A stretch of 38,661 bases of DNA, taken from IMG/VR virus record IMGVR_UViG_3300031953_000059, positions 1 to 38,661 of that record. One strand, given 5' to 3'. The notes beneath the pieces were generated by a model that worked only from the letters and a program-made list of their open reading frames with translations, was not told the origin of the DNA and did not search any database. Positions 5,435 to 38,212 of this stretch are shown in pieces (positions within the stretch are counted from its first letter, which is position 1; every line of letters begins with the position of its first letter). The stretch is from a virus. Its lineage: Duplodnaviria > Caudoviricetes. The translations under genes and the position numbers were made by a program.

Positions 5435-6418
5435 ATGGAAAAGGGCACGGCACCGCTGCGAGTTGCTGCTGTAGAGGATGGTTCGGCGTGTGGGTATTAC
5501 CGCATCCGTTTGCCGTTCGACGAGATCGCCAAGCACGGTCACGAGATGAAGTATTCCCGCGAGTACGAGTTTGACGAGTCGTGGCCGGTGTTCGTGGCCC
5601 AGCGGTTTGGGTCGCCAGGGTTTCAGGCTCAGTGGTTGAAGTTATGGCGGAAGCACAAGCTCGTCTGGGAAACCGATGATGATCTGTGGAACATCGACTA
5701 CTCCAATAAGCGGGCAGTGAAGGCGTTCACACCAGAGTTTTTGAAGGCGATGGAAATGTGTGTGCGCACTGCACATACGGTAACGGTGACGAACGATCAC
5801 CTGGCCGAGCAGATGTCGCGTTTCAACCCGAACGTCGTTGTGGTTCCGAACATGATCGACGCGCCCTTGTGCGATGCCCCCCGCATCCGCCGCAAGAAGC
5901 TGACTATCGGTTGGGCCGGTGGCGACTCCCACCGCCGAGACCTGCGCTACATCGTCACCCCGGTGCAGCGCATCATCCGAACCACAGACGCGCAGGTCCA
6001 CACAATTGGTGCCGACTACCTCAGCGACATCCGCATCCCGCAGGACCGTTACCGGCACTCCGGGTGGGAAACGCGCCTCATTGATTACTACAAGACCATC
6101 GACTTTGACATCGGTCTGGCTCCTCTTGAGGACACCGTTTTTACCCGTTCGAAGTCCTACATCAAAGCCCTCGAGTACGGGGCGTTAGGTATCCCCGTTA
6201 TTGCCTCCGCTGCGGGCCCATACCTCGATTACGTCGAAGACGGCGTGACGGGGTTTCTCGTCAGAAAGGAATCGGAATGGATCGACAGGATGCAGTTACT
6301 GATCGCCGACGCGGACCTGCGGGAGTCTATGGGGGCAGCCGGCAGAGAGAAGGCCAGAAAGCACACGATCCAGCAGGGCTGGACACAGTGGGAGACGGTC
6401 TTCCGGTCTCTGACGTGA
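5435..6418 (+). CDS. Glycosyltransferase, GT-B fold (GT4-like)
   Basis: CGYYRIRLP, WETDDDLW, IGWAGG..H..DL, DIGLAPL....F...KS.IKALEYGALGIPVIAS...PY, GVTGFLV. Confidence 0.9.
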   Translation: MEKGTAPLRVAAVEDGSACGYYRIRLPFDEIAKHGHEMKYSREYEFDESWPVFVAQRFGSPGFQAQWLKLWRKHKLVWETDDDLWNIDYSNKRAVKAFTPEFLKAMEMCVRTAHTVTVTNDHLAEQMSRFNPNVVVVPNMIDAPLCDAPRIRRKKLTIGWAGGDSHRRDLRYIVTPVQRIIRTTDAQVHTIGADYLSDIRIPQDRYRHSGWETRLIDYYKTIDFDIGLAPLEDTVFTRSKSYIKALEYGALGIPVIASAAGPYLDYVEDGVTGFLVRKESEWIDRMQLLIADADLRESMGAAGREKARKHTIQQGWTQWETVFRSLT

Positions 6419-16011: not shown

Positions 16012-16770
16012 ATGATCTCGGTTCTCGTCGTTACCTACAACCACGAGCAGTGGATCGACAGGGCACTAGCGTCCGTGCACAGGCAGAGCGGGATCGGCAA
16101 GGTTGAGATAGTAGTTGCCGACGATGCATCGAACGACGACACCCTGCACATGGTGGAGCGTTGGAAGAATCGACTCAACCTTCGCATCCTTCCAACAGAA
16201 CCAAACATGGGCATAACCCGCAACTACCAGCGTGGGTTTGCGGCAACACAAGGCGACTTAGTTGCCGTTCTGGAGGGTGACGACGAATGGTCCCACCCAC
16301 GCAAGTTGAAACGCCAAGCCCGGGCCATGCGAGACAAGAGCCTGAGCATGTGCGCCACCCGCACCTTAATGATCACTAACGGTGGCGAGCAAGAGGAGGT
16401 GCTTCCGTACCCGCTGAGTAGTCGTAGAAGGTTCTCGGCAGAAGAGCTTGCCGGTGGAAACGCGTTCTCCACCTTCTCCGCATGTATGTACCGAAAAACT
16501 GCGCTTGAACACATCAACCCAGAGGTCTATAGCCTGACCGCCTACGACTGGTTGATCAATCTGCTCGTCACCGAAACGGGCGAAGGGCTTCTACTACCCG
16601 AGGTAATGACCACTTACCATCGCCATTCAGCCGGGGTCTGGTCTCAGAAGACTCAAACAGAACGCGATCGACAAGTAATCAATCTCATCCCTCAGTACCA
16701 GCGTTTTCTTCGCCCCTCAGTCGCAGAAGAGGTAGGACGACTCAGGTCATACCTGATTGACAACCTGTAA
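16012..16770 (+). CDS. Glycosyltransferase family 2 (GT-A), moron next to attP
   Basis: ISVLVVTYNHE, IVVADDASND, NMG...NY, LEGDDEW, DW..NL; TAGACT -10 at 16000-16005, 6 nt before ATG. Confidence 0.92.
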   Translation: MISVLVVTYNHEQWIDRALASVHRQSGIGKVEIVVADDASNDDTLHMVERWKNRLNLRILPTEPNMGITRNYQRGFAATQGDLVAVLEGDDEWSHPRKLKRQARAMRDKSLSMCATRTLMITNGGEQEEVLPYPLSSRRRFSAEELAGGNAFSTFSACMYRKTALEHINPEVYSLTAYDWLINLLVTETGEGLLLPEVMTTYHRHSAGVWSQKTQTERDRQVINLIPQYQRFLRPSVAEEVGRLRSYLIDNL

Positions 16771-26827: not shown

Positions 26828-27126
26828 CAAAGGCCAAGCCGAAGGCGGATGACCCGCGCTGCGAGCACCAGGACTTCGATGGAACGTTCCTGCACCGCGT
26901 ATCGAGCGTCCGTGATGGTGACGACTGGCATGGCCGGTCCTTCCGCAGCACATGGGTATGCGCTGAACGCGCTTGCACCCTTGACGCTCAAGCTTGGGCG
27001 TTGCGGTCTGGCGAACCAGAGGTGTTTACCTACGCCCACCGTGGGCACGACTGCGACATGTGCATGCCCGTGCAACTACCTTCCAATACACGTCAGGAGG
27101 CGAACGATGACGCTCGGAACCATTGA
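26824..27126 (+). CDS. Hypothetical Cys/His-rich protein
   Basis: GTGA overlap; CEH, C....C, H..H.C..C. Confidence 0.5.
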   Translation: MTKAKPKADDPRCEHQDFDGTFLHRVSSVRDGDDWHGRSFRSTWVCAERACTLDAQAWALRSGEPEVFTYAHRGHDCDMCMPVQLPSNTRQEANDDARNH

Positions 27127-27664
27127 CCCGACCGCCTACGAACTGGGTGGCGATGTGGACCTCAGCGACCCGCGCATCCGCCGTCTAGACGGCTGGTCCA
27201 ACCACGGCATGATGCGGTTGCAGATGCCGTTCATGACCGAGGTGGCCGAGAACCTGTGGCATGGCGGCGTGGAGCGCGGCATGGTCCTGCCCGAGTTCGT
27301 GCAGTTCAAGCTCTCGCTGTACCCGTGGGAGGACTACGAAATCCAGCACGACGTCGAGTCTCGCAAGGTCGAGATGTACGACAGCCTCGACCAGGGATTC
27401 GATCGGGTCATCGAACTCGCTGAATGGGTCAACGAGCGCCGCTTGATCGGGCCGGTCTTCGTCCACTGTCAGGCGGGCCTCAATCGTTCCAGCCTGGTCG
27501 TGGCGATGGCCCTGCTTGGTCTCGGAGATGTTGATACCGGACAAGAGGCGATCGACCTCATCCGCAAGAAGCGCGATCGCGCCTGCCTCTGCAATCCGAG
27601 CTTCGAGGCCTGGGTCCGAAAGCAGACACCCGCAAGTAGCAGCACAGAAAAGGAGGCCAACTGA
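27107..27664 (+). CDS. Dual-specificity / protein-tyrosine phosphatase family
   Basis: VFVHCQAGLNRS (HCX5R), acid-loop MYD, AIDLIRKKR....LCNPSF; RBS AGGAGG, ATG 27107. Confidence 0.9.
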   Translation: MTLGTIDPTAYELGGDVDLSDPRIRRLDGWSNHGMMRLQMPFMTEVAENLWHGGVERGMVLPEFVQFKLSLYPWEDYEIQHDVESRKVEMYDSLDQGFDRVIELAEWVNERRLIGPVFVHCQAGLNRSSLVVAMALLGLGDVDTGQEAIDLIRKKRDRACLCNPSFEAWVRKQTPASSSTEKEAN

Positions 27665-29659: not shown

Positions 29660-29860
29660 ATGACCAGCAGCCAGGACACCCGGAAGGTCGTCAAAATGCT
29701 CCGCAACGCGGGGTGGACGGCAGGCCGCACAATTGGATCGCACACCGCCTGGGTCGGCCCGAACGGAACCCCGTTCAGCCTCCCAGACGGACACCGCGAA
29801 ATCAGCCCCGGCGTCTACCGGAACCTGCTGAAGGCCATGAAGGAGGACGAAGCCCGATGA
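29660..29860 (+). CDS. hicA: HicA-family toxin
   Basis: 66 aa; VVKMLRNAGW...R..GSH..W......P.GHREISPGVYRNL. Confidence 0.9.
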   Translation: MTSSQDTRKVVKMLRNAGWTAGRTIGSHTAWVGPNGTPFSLPDGHREISPGVYRNLLKAMKEDEAR

Positions 29861-30240
29861 TGCACTACAAGGCAACAGCCACCCGAGAGGGGAAGTGGTG
29901 GATGGTCACCATCCCCGACCTCGACGGGCTCACACAGGCCCGCCGGCTCTCTGAGGCTCAAACGATGGCACGCGAGTGGATCGCCGTCACCCTCGATGTT
30001 CCTCTGGAAGAAGTCGACGTGACCGTGTACGTCTCACACGTCGCTGACATCGAGGTCGAGGGTTCGGTCATTCAGATCAAGGAGTGGCGGGCGAGTGCGG
30101 CGGACGCGGAGGCTCGAGCGCTTGAACAGGCCGAGCGTCTGGCGAAGGATCTTGCGGCAAAGGGAGTTCCGGTGCGCGACATCGGGACGATCCTCGACCT
30201 TTCGTTTCAGCGAGCTCATCAGCTCGTGACTAAGAACTAG
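29857..30240 (+). CDS. hicB: HicB-family antitoxin with C-terminal HTH
   Basis: Y.ATATREGKWWMVTIPDLDGLTQARRLSEA..MAREWIA; C-terminal PVRDIGTILDLSFQRAHQL. Confidence 0.88.
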   Translation: MMHYKATATREGKWWMVTIPDLDGLTQARRLSEAQTMAREWIAVTLDVPLEEVDVTVYVSHVADIEVEGSVIQIKEWRASAADAEARALEQAERLAKDLAAKGVPVRDIGTILDLSFQRAHQLVTKN

Positions 30241-34580: not shown

Positions 34581-34655
34581 GGCCCTCTAGCCCAATTGGT
34601 AGAGGCGGCGGTCTCAAAATCCGTCCATGTCCGAGTTCGAGTCTCGGGAGGGTCA
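34581..34655 (+). tRNA. tRNA-Leu(CAA), short variable loop
   Basis: Acceptor GGCCCTC/GAGGGTC, D-loop AATTGGTAGA, anticodon CAA 34615-34617, T-arm CCGAG-TTCGAGT-CTCGG, A73; CCA not encoded. Confidence 0.85.
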
Positions 34656-34761
34656 CAACTAATTGCGAAACACGCATAATTGCGGCTTGTGCAAACTTGC
34701 AGTTCGTGTAAGACTGAGCGTGCTTGGTATTCGTGTCTGAAAAATCAGACGCCAACCAACT

Positions 34762-34790
34762 GAAAGGGCCACCTTCGGGTGGCCTTTTCT
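34762..34790 (+). terminator. Intrinsic terminator
   Basis: GAAAGGGCCACC-TTCG-GGTGGCCTTTTC with UUCG tetraloop. Confidence 0.8.
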
Positions 34791-34923
34791 CGTTAAGACT
34801 TCGCCCGGACATCGCACACACGCCAAATTACGAGCCTCTATCGGCCCGAGAAGAAAAACGCACCTGCGATTCGATCCCGACGAACCCCTCCCCCAGTATC
34901 CGAATGAACATCGGAGAACCCTG

Positions 34924-35139
34924 TTGTCTCTGCTGGAAGACCTCAACAGTCTTGCCCCGAAAAAGCTGCCCCTCAACGAATGGGTCGATAACCTCACCCC
35001 CGAAGAGCTCGCCGCATTCATAGCCGTCACCCAAGCGAAAACGTCAACAGAGTCGCTAATCGACATCCTCCGCAAAAACGGGTGCGCCGTCACACGCGGC
35101 ACCCTGAACCAGTGGCGGGCCGAGCATGCTGCTCGATGA
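34924..35139 (+). CDS. Small hypothetical protein, possible HTH
   Basis: 71 aa; RBS GGAG; LIDILRKNGCAVTRGTLNQWR; overlaps the next gene. Confidence 0.65.
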   Translation: MSLLEDLNSLAPKKLPLNEWVDNLTPEELAAFIAVTQAKTSTESLIDILRKNGCAVTRGTLNQWRAEHAAR

Positions 35140-36244
35140 CCTCCAAAACCGGCTCATCCCCGACGAATGGCGTGCACGTCAAACCCTCCTAGGTGAAGAC
35201 GGCGAAACAGTCACAGGGCCGATCATGCCTGTGCAGCAAGACGTGGACCTTCTCACCCAGTTCGGCTACGACCCGAACGAGATCGAGATCGTCGGCCAGA
35301 TCGGGCAATGGCGCAAAGAGCAACCCGATGGCACATGGCGGGTTTCGTACAGGTTCTCCCACCGCCGCCGCACAGCCTCACTCGACCTCCCAGCACTGTA
35401 CGCAGCGGCGAAGAAGAAGCCAGGCAAGCCCATCACCACCACAGGTGACCGGGTAACAGTCGTCGTCCTAGCTGACGTTCAGGCAGGCAAGGTCGGTTCA
35501 CGCGGTGGCACACCCGAGCTCATCGACCGCCTCGAAGAGAAGCGGACCAAGCTCGAGCAGCACCTACGCCGAGTGAAGCCCTCCCGCACAGTCCTAGCCG
35601 AAGCCGGCGACCTGTTCGAAGGGTTCGAATCGGGCGGCAACCCGATGTTCACCAACGACCTCTCCCTCGCACAACAGATCGACCTCGCCTCCACCGAAGT
35701 GTTCGAGTTCGTGAAGCTGCAGTCACGGTTCGGCCCTGTTGATGTCATCGCAGTGCCCTCCAATCACACTGCATGGCGGAACGGTAAGCAGCAGCTTGGT
35801 AGACCCGGTGACGATCTCGGACTGTTGTGCCACCGTCAAGTGCAGAAAGTCACCGAAGCATCCGGCATCAACGCCACATGGACCCTGCCACCCATGTACG
35901 ACGAAGCAGTCACCCTCGACGTGAACGGCACCACCCTAGGCATGGTCCACGGGAACCAATACTCACCCGGTGGCGCACCTAACTGGTGGGGCAAACAAAC
36001 CCACGGTGGTCAACCGATCGGCTCAGCCGACATCCTCGTTGCTGGCCACTACCACCACCTCTCCATCCTCCCCACAGGACGCAACCCCTACACGGGTCGA
36101 TCGAAGTGGTTCCTGCAAGCACCCACCCTCGACAACTCGTCCGACTGGTTCAGGAACCGTGCCGGCGACGACTCCGACCCCGGCCTCCTGGTGTTCGACA
36201 TCACGACTGACGGGTTCGACCTGCAATCACTCACCGTCCTGTAA
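35126..36244 (+). CDS. Calcineurin-like metallophosphoesterase (Mre11-like)
   Basis: ADVQAG, AGDLFE, PSNH, VHG, AGHYHH motifs in canonical order. Confidence 0.88.
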   Translation: MLLDDLQNRLIPDEWRARQTLLGEDGETVTGPIMPVQQDVDLLTQFGYDPNEIEIVGQIGQWRKEQPDGTWRVSYRFSHRRRTASLDLPALYAAAKKKPGKPITTTGDRVTVVVLADVQAGKVGSRGGTPELIDRLEEKRTKLEQHLRRVKPSRTVLAEAGDLFEGFESGGNPMFTNDLSLAQQIDLASTEVFEFVKLQSRFGPVDVIAVPSNHTAWRNGKQQLGRPGDDLGLLCHRQVQKVTEASGINATWTLPPMYDEAVTLDVNGTTLGMVHGNQYSPGGAPNWWGKQTHGGQPIGSADILVAGHYHHLSILPTGRNPYTGRSKWFLQAPTLDNSSDWFRNRAGDDSDPGLLVFDITTDGFDLQSLTVL

Positions 36245-36296: not shown

Positions 36297-36374
36297 GGGC
36301 TGTAAATAGTGTTCGACTGGCAGAACCGCATGCGGAACCTAGTCAGGACGCCGGGGCAGAACCGGCACAGTCCA
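36297..36374 (+). ncRNA. Mini-tmRNA: tRNA-like domain only, no tag ORF
   Basis: Acceptor GGGCTGT/ACAGTCC with G3.U70 and A73; stemless D-region ending TTCGAC; helix GACTGG/CTAGTC; GGAC then T-arm GCCGG-GGCAGAA-CCGGC. Confidence 0.75.
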
Positions 36375-36491
36375 CGGGGATCTAGCTAGTCCCTGGCGGA
36401 AAGACCCACCCACCGCCATAACTCCTCGTCTTCCTCCGGGAATGGCGGGGCTTACAAACAGGTCGGCGTCAATACGGCGGACCTCATAGTG

Positions 36492-36575
36492 AGAAGCGGG
36501 GCAGGCGTGCGTCTGTGGCCCTCATCCGGCCTCACAAGGGCTTAGACCCGGATAGCCGCATGATGCCCCGCTTCT
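36492..36575 (+). ncRNA. Unclassified long stem-loop
   Basis: 12-bp closing stem AGAAGCGGGGCA/TGCCCCGCTTCT with inner helices CGTGCG/CGCATG and ATCCGG/CCGGAT. Confidence 0.45.
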
Positions 36576-36579
36576 GCAA

Positions 36580-36650
36580 TGCCCGTTGGTGTAACGGCAA
36601 CACGACTGGCTCTGATCCAGTTATTCGAGGTTCGAATCCTTGATGGGCAG
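36580..36650 (+). tRNA. tRNA-Gln(CTG)
   Basis: Acceptor TGCCCGT/ATGGGCA, D-arm GTG-TAACGGCAA-CAC, ACTGG-CT-CTG-AT-CCAGT, T-loop TTCGAAT, G73. Confidence 0.9.
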
Positions 36651-36753
36651 CGAGAGACGAGCACCACGAAATCAACGTGGCGCTAGACAGACTGAGGACG
36701 CCACTCAGGGGTCGGACAACGTTCCCGTCTCCAACCTATAAACGGAGGCGATC

Positions 36754-37272: not shown

Positions 37273-37770
37273 GTGCTCCCAGTCGTAATCGGTACCAACC
37301 CCGAACGAACACCCTGGCTACACGACTGCCTCAAATCCATCAGAGCCACCAGCAAACACCGCCGCGTACTCATCCACAAAACAGGCGGCTACGAACCCGC
37401 CGCCATCCGAACCGGATGCGCACAATTCAGCCAGTTCCTATTCATCCACGACTCAGTAACAATCCTCCACAAAGACTTCTGGGAAATGATCGACTCAAGC
37501 GGGCCAGCATGGCTAGCAGGCTGGCCACCAATGCTCATCGCCATATACAAAAGCGCAGACATCGAACCGCACCTCCCCACCCGCGAGGTATCCAAACGGG
37601 AAGCAATCGAGCTCGAAGGCACCCTCCCCGCACGAGTCATCATGAACACAATCTGGCCCGAAATAACCGACAACACTCATCTTCGCATGGAAGAGCGCCA
37701 CGGTCGCATGAACATGGTCCTAGGTAACCACCTATGGACCAAGCACAAAGGTGACTGGGGACAAGGCTAG
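37273..37770 (+). CDS. Compact GT-A-like glycosyltransferase (divergent)
   Basis: VVIGT...R..WL.DCLKSI resembles the GT2 N terminus; FLFIHDS at the DxD position; only 165 aa. Confidence 0.5.
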   Translation: MLPVVIGTNPERTPWLHDCLKSIRATSKHRRVLIHKTGGYEPAAIRTGCAQFSQFLFIHDSVTILHKDFWEMIDSSGPAWLAGWPPMLIAIYKSADIEPHLPTREVSKREAIELEGTLPARVIMNTIWPEITDNTHLRMEERHGRMNMVLGNHLWTKHKGDWGQG

Positions 37771-37777
37771 GGGGACA

Positions 37778-38212
37778 ATGCGAGTCCTCTACCCAGGCGG
37801 CTTCGACCTCCTCCACCACGGCCACCGAACAGCACTCACCACAGCCCGCACCATCGCCGGCAGATACGGCAACGGACACCTCACAGTGGCAGTCAACTCA
37901 GACGACTTCCTCACCCACTACAAGAGAAACCCCCAGAGGCCCGCCAAAGAGCGCATAGCTGATGTGCGCGAACTCGGCATAGCCGACGACGTAATCCAAT
38001 GGGACGGCCCCGAAGGGCAAGACCAGCAGATACTCAACACCGGCTGCGAACTCTACCTAGCCGGCACTGACTGGCTCACCCAGAACCTCGCCCACCAGCT
38101 CAGGCTCCCATCCCTGGGATGGTTCGACCAGCACAACATCAGCCTCCTCTACCTACGCCGCACACCAGGCATCAGCACAACCCAGCTCATCGAGGAAGGC
38201 ATGAACCGATGA
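37778..38212 (+). CDS. Cytidylyltransferase-like nucleotidyltransferase (TagD/RfaE superfamily)
   Basis: YPGGFDLLHHGH (HxGH), LTVAVNSD....YKR.P....ER, G.DW, YLRRTPGISTT. Confidence 0.9.
   Translation: MRVLYPGGFDLLHHGHRTALTTARTIAGRYGNGHLTVAVNSDDFLTHYKRNPQRPAKERIADVRELGIADDVIQWDGPEGQDQQILNTGCELYLAGTDWLTQNLAHQLRLPSLGWFDQHNISLLYLRRTPGISTTQLIEEGMNR

Follow-up and report, generated by a model that had tools for sequence, protein, structure and literature searches.

The window, a 38.7-kb virus record analyzed over its whole length, carries a gene for tmRNA’s tRNA-like domain (TLD) at positions 36297..36374 (+ strand). As read directly from the sequence, the gene is 78 nt long through the discriminator base, and the tag frame is absent. 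By sequence comparison, this tag-less mini-tmRNA is a member of the TLD-only class of phage tmRNAs represented by Mycobacterium phage DS6A, real and under selection. The same comparisons established its four helices, a D-loop/T-loop contact, alanine identity, the lack of a tag frame and of a phage-encoded SmpB, and mobility between phages. The best explanation, to which we assign a probability of about 0.5, is that the RNA acts as an alanine-charged competitor that enters stalled ribosomes with the host’s SmpB and prevents tagging, the benefit to the phage being less SsrA tagging.

Anatomy and detection of the element

The acceptor stem is fully paired (7/7) between its 5′ strand (36297..36303, +), which begins with G1, G2, and G3, and 36367-36373; it contains a G3.U70 wobble and is followed by A73 at 36374. 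The stemless D-loop (36304..36317, +) ends in UUCGAC and has AG where GG is usual, and this UUCGAC is predicted by homology to be the 5′ half of the SmpB-binding elbow. A shortened P2 arm (36317..36346, +) stands in place of the pseudoknots and tag frame and is composed of a 5-bp helix (36317-36321 with 36342-36346), an internal loop, and a capping hairpin (36326-36335). The arm is capped short, and 28 nt separate the two elbow motifs. The GAC connector and T-arm follow (36347..36366, +): GGAC lies at 36346-36349, before a 5-bp T-stem with the loop GGCAGAA, in which G54, G55, and G58 replace U54, U55, and A58. The final segment (36367..36377, +) comprises the acceptor 3′ strand, A73, C74, and GG. 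The gene encodes no CCA, with CGG directly after A73, and both tRNA genes of the phage lack it as well. None of the resume codon, tag frame, and stop codon of standard tmRNA was found in the element. A hairpin that is not conserved in relatives abuts the 3′ end (36376..36394, +) and is possibly an aid to processing. A 10-mer is repeated inside the gene, in the P2 arm (36319-36328) and across the T-loop (36355-36364), probably by chance.

The initial annotation had described the RNA as a tmRNA reduced to its tRNA-like domain, with no mRNA-like part; the features it named are present at this place, and a covariance model and covariation agree with that description. Its helix GACUGG/CUAGUC stands as the MFE register of the window copy, but the register of the family begins at the last C of the D-loop, a shift of two bases. 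At least four of the five pairs of the family P2 register (36317-36321 with 36342-36346) form in 99 of 107 copies, compared to 11 of 107 for the register first proposed. The window copy can adopt both registers, and so can each of its four nearest relatives; the gap between the two is 1.7 kcal/mol. The MFE of the element was -32.1 kcal/mol (z -3.24), which was equalled in 1 of 200 shuffles, and the opposite strand gave no fold signal (z -0.23). The window contained a single match to the core pattern, and 100 shuffles contained none. The element was also identical (0 differences) in contigs of three further DNA runs (X5, X6, and X9).

Annotators miss this gene, as had been anticipated: ARAGORN and Rfam searches of the window gave no call on the mini-tmRNA, and RF00023 (cut-off 47 bits) did not match it. 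A BLASTN search of 50,697 annotated phages with the element returned no homologue, just tRNA-Gln and chance matches. Identity as tRNA-Ala was rejected, because the RNA is without a D-stem and without an anticodon arm with a 7-nt loop and received no ARAGORN or RF00005 call. A permuted two-piece tmRNA, such as the permuted gene seen in L085, was also rejected, since both halves lie in standard order inside 78 nt.

Family breadth, alanine identity, and the tertiary elbow

A phage tmRNA variant of this kind had been mentioned in the initial annotation, and the precedent was traced to DS6A, whose RNA is listed as a “TLD only” tmRNA in the available text of PMC4131195 and PMC11915505. The DS6A RNA (JN698994 28478-28557; tmRNA Website tmID 11587, Phage__Mycobacterium.9) scored 59.5 bits with model R1, which was built from 20 other copies, excluding the DS6A and window sequences. 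The window copy scored 35 bits (E value, 4.8e-7), and the next best match scored 15.1 bits. The GCAC connector and the A-U closing T-stem pair of the DS6A RNA hide it from a hand-written descriptor, whereas the covariance model detects it. Both RNAs have standard gene order, G3.U70, A73, a stemless D-loop ending in UCGAC, a short P2 helix, an A-rich internal loop, a CCGC/GCGG cap, a length of about 80 nt, no tag frame, and no encoded CCA, and both belong to actinobacterial temperate phages. They share 57% identity and differ in gene neighborhood, and their elbows are also distinct: DS6A has a UUCGA T-loop and GCAC, whereas the window copy has an AG D-loop, a G54/G55/G58 T-loop, and an intact GGAC.

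Standard bacterial tmRNA (RF00023) has a homologous tRNA-like domain but also pseudoknots, a resume codon, a tag frame, and a stop codon, none of which is present in the mini-tmRNA. Mitochondrial RF02544 and the plastid tmRNAs of about 65 nt from Mallomonadaceae are, like the mini-tmRNA, tRNA-like domains without a tag frame, as described in the available text of PMC11915505, where the viruses surveyed were those of RefSeq and not of IMG/VR. However, a CDS-less organellar tmRNA is the organelle’s own, with its own SmpB, while the phage RNA is present alongside a full tmRNA of the host and comes without an SmpB. Phage and plasmid tmRNAs are treated in PMC12656738 and PMC10832533, the available sections of which do not describe the tag-less form. 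A literature search found no paper on the breadth of a tag-less phage family among sources that mostly excluded subscription papers.

To describe the family, a pattern was used that specified just the acceptor ends, the elbow motifs, and two T-stem pairs. It gave 120 loci from 10 of the 64 parts of IMG/VR, which extrapolates to about 830 stretches. Together with three sequences from another search and the window copy, the pattern loci amounted to 109 distinct sequences with lengths of 60-92 nt (78-79 nt in 54/109), and 106 of these had 7/7 acceptor pairs and 5/5 T-stem pairs. At 80% identity, the 107 viral-set copies with at least six acceptor pairs fell into 62 clusters. An unfitted alignment of 20 sequences was 97.9% paired, with a covariation of 0.69 compared to 0.14 when shuffled. 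In an alignment of 77 copies, which was fitted to the covariance model, 96.5% of cells were paired (93.6% in helix 2 and 91.6% in helix 3), and the covariation was 0.70 compared to 0.14 when shuffled and at most 0.10 in slid controls. A covariation check on homologues had been proposed at the outset, and all four helices were found to covary. The RF00023 cut-off was passed by 11 of 20 and 36 of 49 family carriers, nearly all with short matches; many members thus lie above the Rfam tmRNA cut-off, which ties the family to tmRNA.

As a control, the same pattern was applied to bacterial genomes, where it matched mostly the 3′ ends of ordinary tmRNAs (100 ARAGORN tmRNA calls for 120 loci), with acceptor pairing of just 3-5 of 7 in 98 of 118 matches. 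These matches were not counted as members, and L356 was left out as doubtful, with no model match. GGCAG-type T-loops, which the initial annotation had attributed to alphaproteobacterial tmRNAs, were observed among them.

Several phage loci showed unusual arrangements. L082 contains two different minis 1.3 kb apart (1486-1562 and 2798-2873), one per T-loop type. In L177 (1-379), a ROOL RNA lies about 25 nt from a mini on the same strand. L030 encodes a 150-nt form (2465-2614) with a UUCGAC D-loop, a long middle helix, and a different acceptor register, and its length falls between those of the mini and full tmRNA.

Alanine identity was determined by an acceptor-free scan, in which the acceptor stem was left unspecified to avoid circularity. 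The scan gave 100 distinct matches, 85 of which had a full T-stem and at least six acceptor pairs. Within these 85 copies, which overlap the 120-locus IMG/VR set and include relatives and are thus not independent events, A73 and G1-C72 were each present in 85, G3.U70 in 84, C74 in 77, and full CCA in 33, while acceptor pairs 4-7 vary freely, with compensation. The sole copy without G3.U70 looks like a small-deletion copy. Of the remaining 15 matches, some arose by chance, and others were damaged copies or the 3′ ends of tmRNAs, full or permuted. At the level of sequence, these results demonstrate that the alanine identity bases are under selection across the family.

The D-loop dinucleotide and T-loop base 55 were compared in 107 copies: 53 had GG with U55, 28 had AG with G55, none was discordant, and 26 were ambiguous. 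The AG/G55 state was found in both length classes and both T-loop types, and in 17 clusters compared to 32 for GG/U55, with one mixed (80% identity). T-loop positions 54 and 58 were UA in 93 of 107 copies and GG in 14 of 107, and the window copy has AG/G55 with G54 and G58. In terms of established tRNA structure, the covarying bases read as 18-55 and 54-58 contacts. Since the D-loop and T-loop bases change together, a tRNA-like elbow is supported.

The strict UCGAC motif was found at the 5′ ends of 66 of 68 full-length tmRNAs, and the window copy retains the full elbow. An elbow-free scan, in which the Ala acceptor was fixed and the elbow unconstrained, gave 92 distinct phage matches, 85 of which had a T-stem and no tRNA call. 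Both strict elbow motifs were present in 26 of these 85 anticodon-less RNAs, one in 22, and neither in 37. Single changes account for many of the deviations, and the 37 matches with neither motif may include odd tRNAs or other RNA classes. The expectation in the initial annotation that homologues would conserve both G3.U70 and the elbow is therefore borne out for G3.U70, but the outcome for the elbow is mixed, as it is rewritten in many phage Ala-acceptor RNAs. In relatives of the window phage, the same accessory region contains Ala-acceptor RNAs of 61-105 nt that lack the UCGAC/GAC elbow (8/85 loci compared to 0 in three shuffles). They have no anticodon, a perfect Ala acceptor and T-arm, and variable middle helices, and are possibly a separate class (L011 5096-5193, L015 5165-5245, L024 4835-4917, L025 5626-5713, L026 5011-5115, L028 4354-4444, L031 4963-5053, and L573 2456-2516).

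Genomic setting, mobility, and host dependence

The window belongs to a temperate tailed phage with genes for terminase, portal, major head, tape measure, integrase, and replication. The mini-tmRNA shares its strand with both tRNAs and is part of an accessory region close to the end of the genome. tRNA-Leu(CAA) (34581..34656, +) marks the upstream end of this region, and tRNA-Gln(CUG) (36580..36651, +) lies 205 nt downstream of the mini-tmRNA. The upstream gene (35126..36244, +), which encodes a 372-aa protein of PHROG 284 (labelled exonuclease), stops 52 nt before it. A Microbacteriaceae host is likely, because this gene has a 71% identical relative in Microbacterium marinum; a search with the major head protein returned distant phages only. 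The upstream gene was rejected as a fixed partner, since no canonical short mini-tmRNA copy was found at 80 loci of its relatives. No sigma-70-type promoter or terminator was found adjoining the element. No RNA run was listed among the sequencing runs that contain it, a result that carries no information on its expression.

A further structured RNA was observed at 36492-36575, ending 4 nt before tRNA-Gln (z -3.58); it is closed by a perfect stem of 12 bp and may form a 6-bp pseudoknot. It had no Rfam match and no true homologue in a pattern search; six pattern matches were one sequence, with no outside similarity and apparently in a coding frame, and were judged to be chance. The stretch after tRNA-Leu (34657-34800) also folds strongly (z -4.45) into two hairpins, the second of which is terminator-like in both directions. 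Glycosyltransferase, GtrB-like, and cytidylyltransferase-like genes were found at 5435-6418, 16012-16770, and 37751-38212, respectively, and the phage may glycosylate its own virion or the host surface. The early genes include a dual-specificity phosphatase gene (26849-27664) and a HicB-like antitoxin gene (29713-30240).

A metagenome search for the window sub-type gave seven loci, and compensatory changes in the acceptor and T-stem were present in five new sub-type loci and the L133 contig. The mini of L567 is 95% identical to the window copy over 80 nt, with flanks that have no similarity. No copy was detected at E 0.001 in the five phage records nearest by terminase or upstream gene, one of which is at least 90% complete. 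On this comparative evidence, the mini-tmRNA travels between phages as stand-alone mobile cargo.

The flanking genes were surveyed by Pfam for 220 of 251 ORFs at 68 loci, with exclusion of near-duplicate loci and of a small number of overlapping frames, and no recurring or dedicated partner protein was found in these 220 ORFs. A head or packaging gene adjoins the mini in 13 of 68 loci, several of which are interrelated. Minis lie within head-assembly operons in L090, L113, and L139; in L098, L131, L132, and L160; and in L138 and L144. Their positions there are the terminase/portal gap, the prohead protease/capsid gap, or just before a Clp-type protease gene. A tRNA was present in the flank of 18 of 76 copies and within 500 nt in 14 of 76.

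SmpB was searched for in 49 carrier records, drawn from about 107 loci, and was absent from all of them (0/49), including those at least 90% complete (0/14); the same search found SmpB in 10 of 14 control genomes. Full-length tmRNA co-occurs in six of the seven bacterial assemblies with a clear mini. One 124-kb phage (G014 contig 1) carries both a mini (46486-46567; L118) and a full-length tmRNA (77588-77979; L561). The likely tag frame of the latter, read by eye, ends in ALSV and not ALAA; an ARAGORN tag call for this tmRNA looks wrong, differs from the by-eye frame, and was set aside.

Candidate functions

If the mini-tmRNA competes with host tmRNA, established tRNA and tmRNA biology would account for its maturation: RNase P would make the 5′ end, the 3′ end would be trimmed and CCA added, host AlaRS would charge the RNA, and SmpB would bind the elbow. 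Together with host SmpB and EF-Tu, the mini would then enter the empty A sites of stalled ribosomes in competition with host tmRNA. By analogy with published similar RNAs, host tmRNA would be inhibited in cells, the mini could accept the nascent chain, and stalled phage proteins would escape SsrA tagging. Since the RNA offers neither a resume codon nor a stop codon, the chain would be expected, after transfer, to gain one or more Ala and to leave by drop-off with Pth or by ArfB; this is the least supported step (background on drop-off and Ala tails is given in the available text of PMC8012679 and PMC11633108).

Competition is favored by the architecture shared with the DS6A RNA, a TLD-only form that reportedly inhibits the cell’s own tmRNA in E. 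coli (PMC11915505 and PMC4131195, available text, both citing Mao et al., 2009). According to the accessible part of PMC4131195, a similar RNA strongly inhibits tmRNA whether chargeable or not, perhaps via SmpB titration. The TLD and SmpB are also active on ribosomes without a template, making poly-Ala in vitro (PMC3929946 and PMC2481249, available text); Shimizu and Ueda (2006) is cited as earlier work in the accessible parts of these tmRNA papers. Competition is further consistent with near-constant alanine identity while pairs 4-7 vary with compensation, with the covariation of the four helices and of the D-loop and T-loop (0/81 unambiguous copies discordant), with the full elbow of standard tmRNAs in the window copy, and with carriers that have no SmpB and, in 6/7 bacterial assemblies, a full tmRNA beside the mini. 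On the other hand, the reported inhibition was independent of charging (PMC4131195, as available), so G3.U70 is not required for it and its conservation equally fits an active role. The rewritten elbow of many phage Ala-acceptor RNAs (strict both motifs in 26/85) and the elbow-less RNAs in the same region of relatives (8/85 loci) also count against competition. The presence of mini and full tmRNA together in G014 is awkward for an anti-tmRNA role, and lambda-immP22 and Mu need host tmRNA, as cited in the available text of PMC12656738.

An active role would take the form of tag-less rescue, in which the Ala-RNA and host SmpB take nascent chains on non-stop ribosomes, add one or several Ala, and speed ribosome recycling; we regard this as a tentative alternative, about half as probable as competition. 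It would be useful during the infection burst, and a short, message-less RNA would survive mRNA-cutting toxins that destroy host tmRNA. Near-absolute alanine identity, although inhibition needs no charging, argues for rescue, as do the in vitro poly-Ala synthesis (PMC3929946 and PMC2481249, as available), the organellar CDS-less tmRNAs thought to aid rescue (PMC11915505, accessible text), and the phage with both mini and full tmRNA. The adjacent head or packaging genes (13/68 loci) and nearby tRNAs (within 500 nt in 14/76) suggest high late expression. However, the RNA has no stop codon and hence no known release step, and no release factor, Pth, or ArfB was found by Pfam in the 220 flanking ORFs. 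The sole cell experiment on such an RNA showed inhibition (PMC4131195, available part), and in organisms with RqcH an Ala tail itself acts as a degron (PMC8012679, available part).

A bolder form of this proposal, about equally tentative, is that hundreds of phages encode RNA-only Ala-tailing and ribosome release, in which a charged mini-tmRNA makes host SmpB a template-free alanine adder and SsrA tagging is replaced during infection. The possible outcome resembles that of RqcH/RqcP, which add Ala to stalled chains without a template, but RqcH works on split 50S subunits with ordinary tRNA-Ala and has no homology to the mini. If true, Ala-tailing would work on stalled 70S ribosomes even in RqcH-less hosts such as Actinobacteria (rqcH is listed in 0 of 3,213 Actinobacteriota genomes in Table 1 of PMC11633108, as available), and elbow-rewritten relatives would be versions retuned to the SmpB of other hosts or to other partners. 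Competition and tag-less rescue coincide up to peptidyl transfer and differ over whether the ribosome is freed afterwards, a point at which sequence cannot separate them.

Host defence toxins attack tRNA acceptor ends or elbows, and non-ribosomal transferases use Ala donors. It is doubtful, though conceivable, that the mini acts independently of SmpB as a tRNA mimic, either as a toxin decoy or as an Ala donor, with the tmRNA scaffold merely a handy anticodon-less carrier. The constant acceptor and variable elbow in the wider set of 85 RNAs, the elbow-less Ala-acceptor RNAs (61-105 nt) of relatives, and the frequent siting in tRNA arrays would fit such a mimic, but a plain decoy would need neither the whole elbow nor a fixed P2 length, and both are retained in the window copy, DS6A, and the main class. 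Still less probable is a cis-acting processing or stability element at which RNase P cuts, dividing a long phage transcript. Several copies do lie at terminase/portal or prohead protease/capsid junctions, and CCA is encoded in only 33 of 85 copies; processing, however, requires neither G3.U70 nor the elbow, the gene context varies freely, and C74 is kept in 77 of 85. A relic (an attP fragment, a decayed host ssrA, or a chance fold) could appeal to ssrA as a common integration site (PMC11915505, available text), to the integrase of the window phage, and to the bacterial matches that are mostly ordinary tmRNA 3′ ends, but covariation makes it very improbable. The integrase lies at a distance of 18 kb, the two halves of the domain both occur and pair with each other, bacterial false matches pair 3-5/7 (98/118) and viral-set copies 7/7 (106/109), near relatives have compensatory changes, and 95% identity persists amid unrelated flanks.

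A charged competitor of host tmRNA is thus the reading we prefer. The tag-less form is already published (DS6A) and common; new here are the breadth of the family, the acceptor-free alanine test, and the D-loop/T-loop covariation, which make the question of function easy to test. For about 15 years, DS6A stood alone as the natural example, beside two laboratory results obtained with similar RNAs. Many natural variants are now available for asking whether SsrA tagging is blocked or replaced, and the window copy is a compact addition of the AG/G55 type to these RNAs, which are missed by ARAGORN and only partly caught by Rfam. Its phage likely infects Microbacteriaceae, for which laboratory strains exist. 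Trans-translation is an antibiotic target, and several hundred copies selected for alanine identity and tertiary shape suggest that phages commonly act on it.
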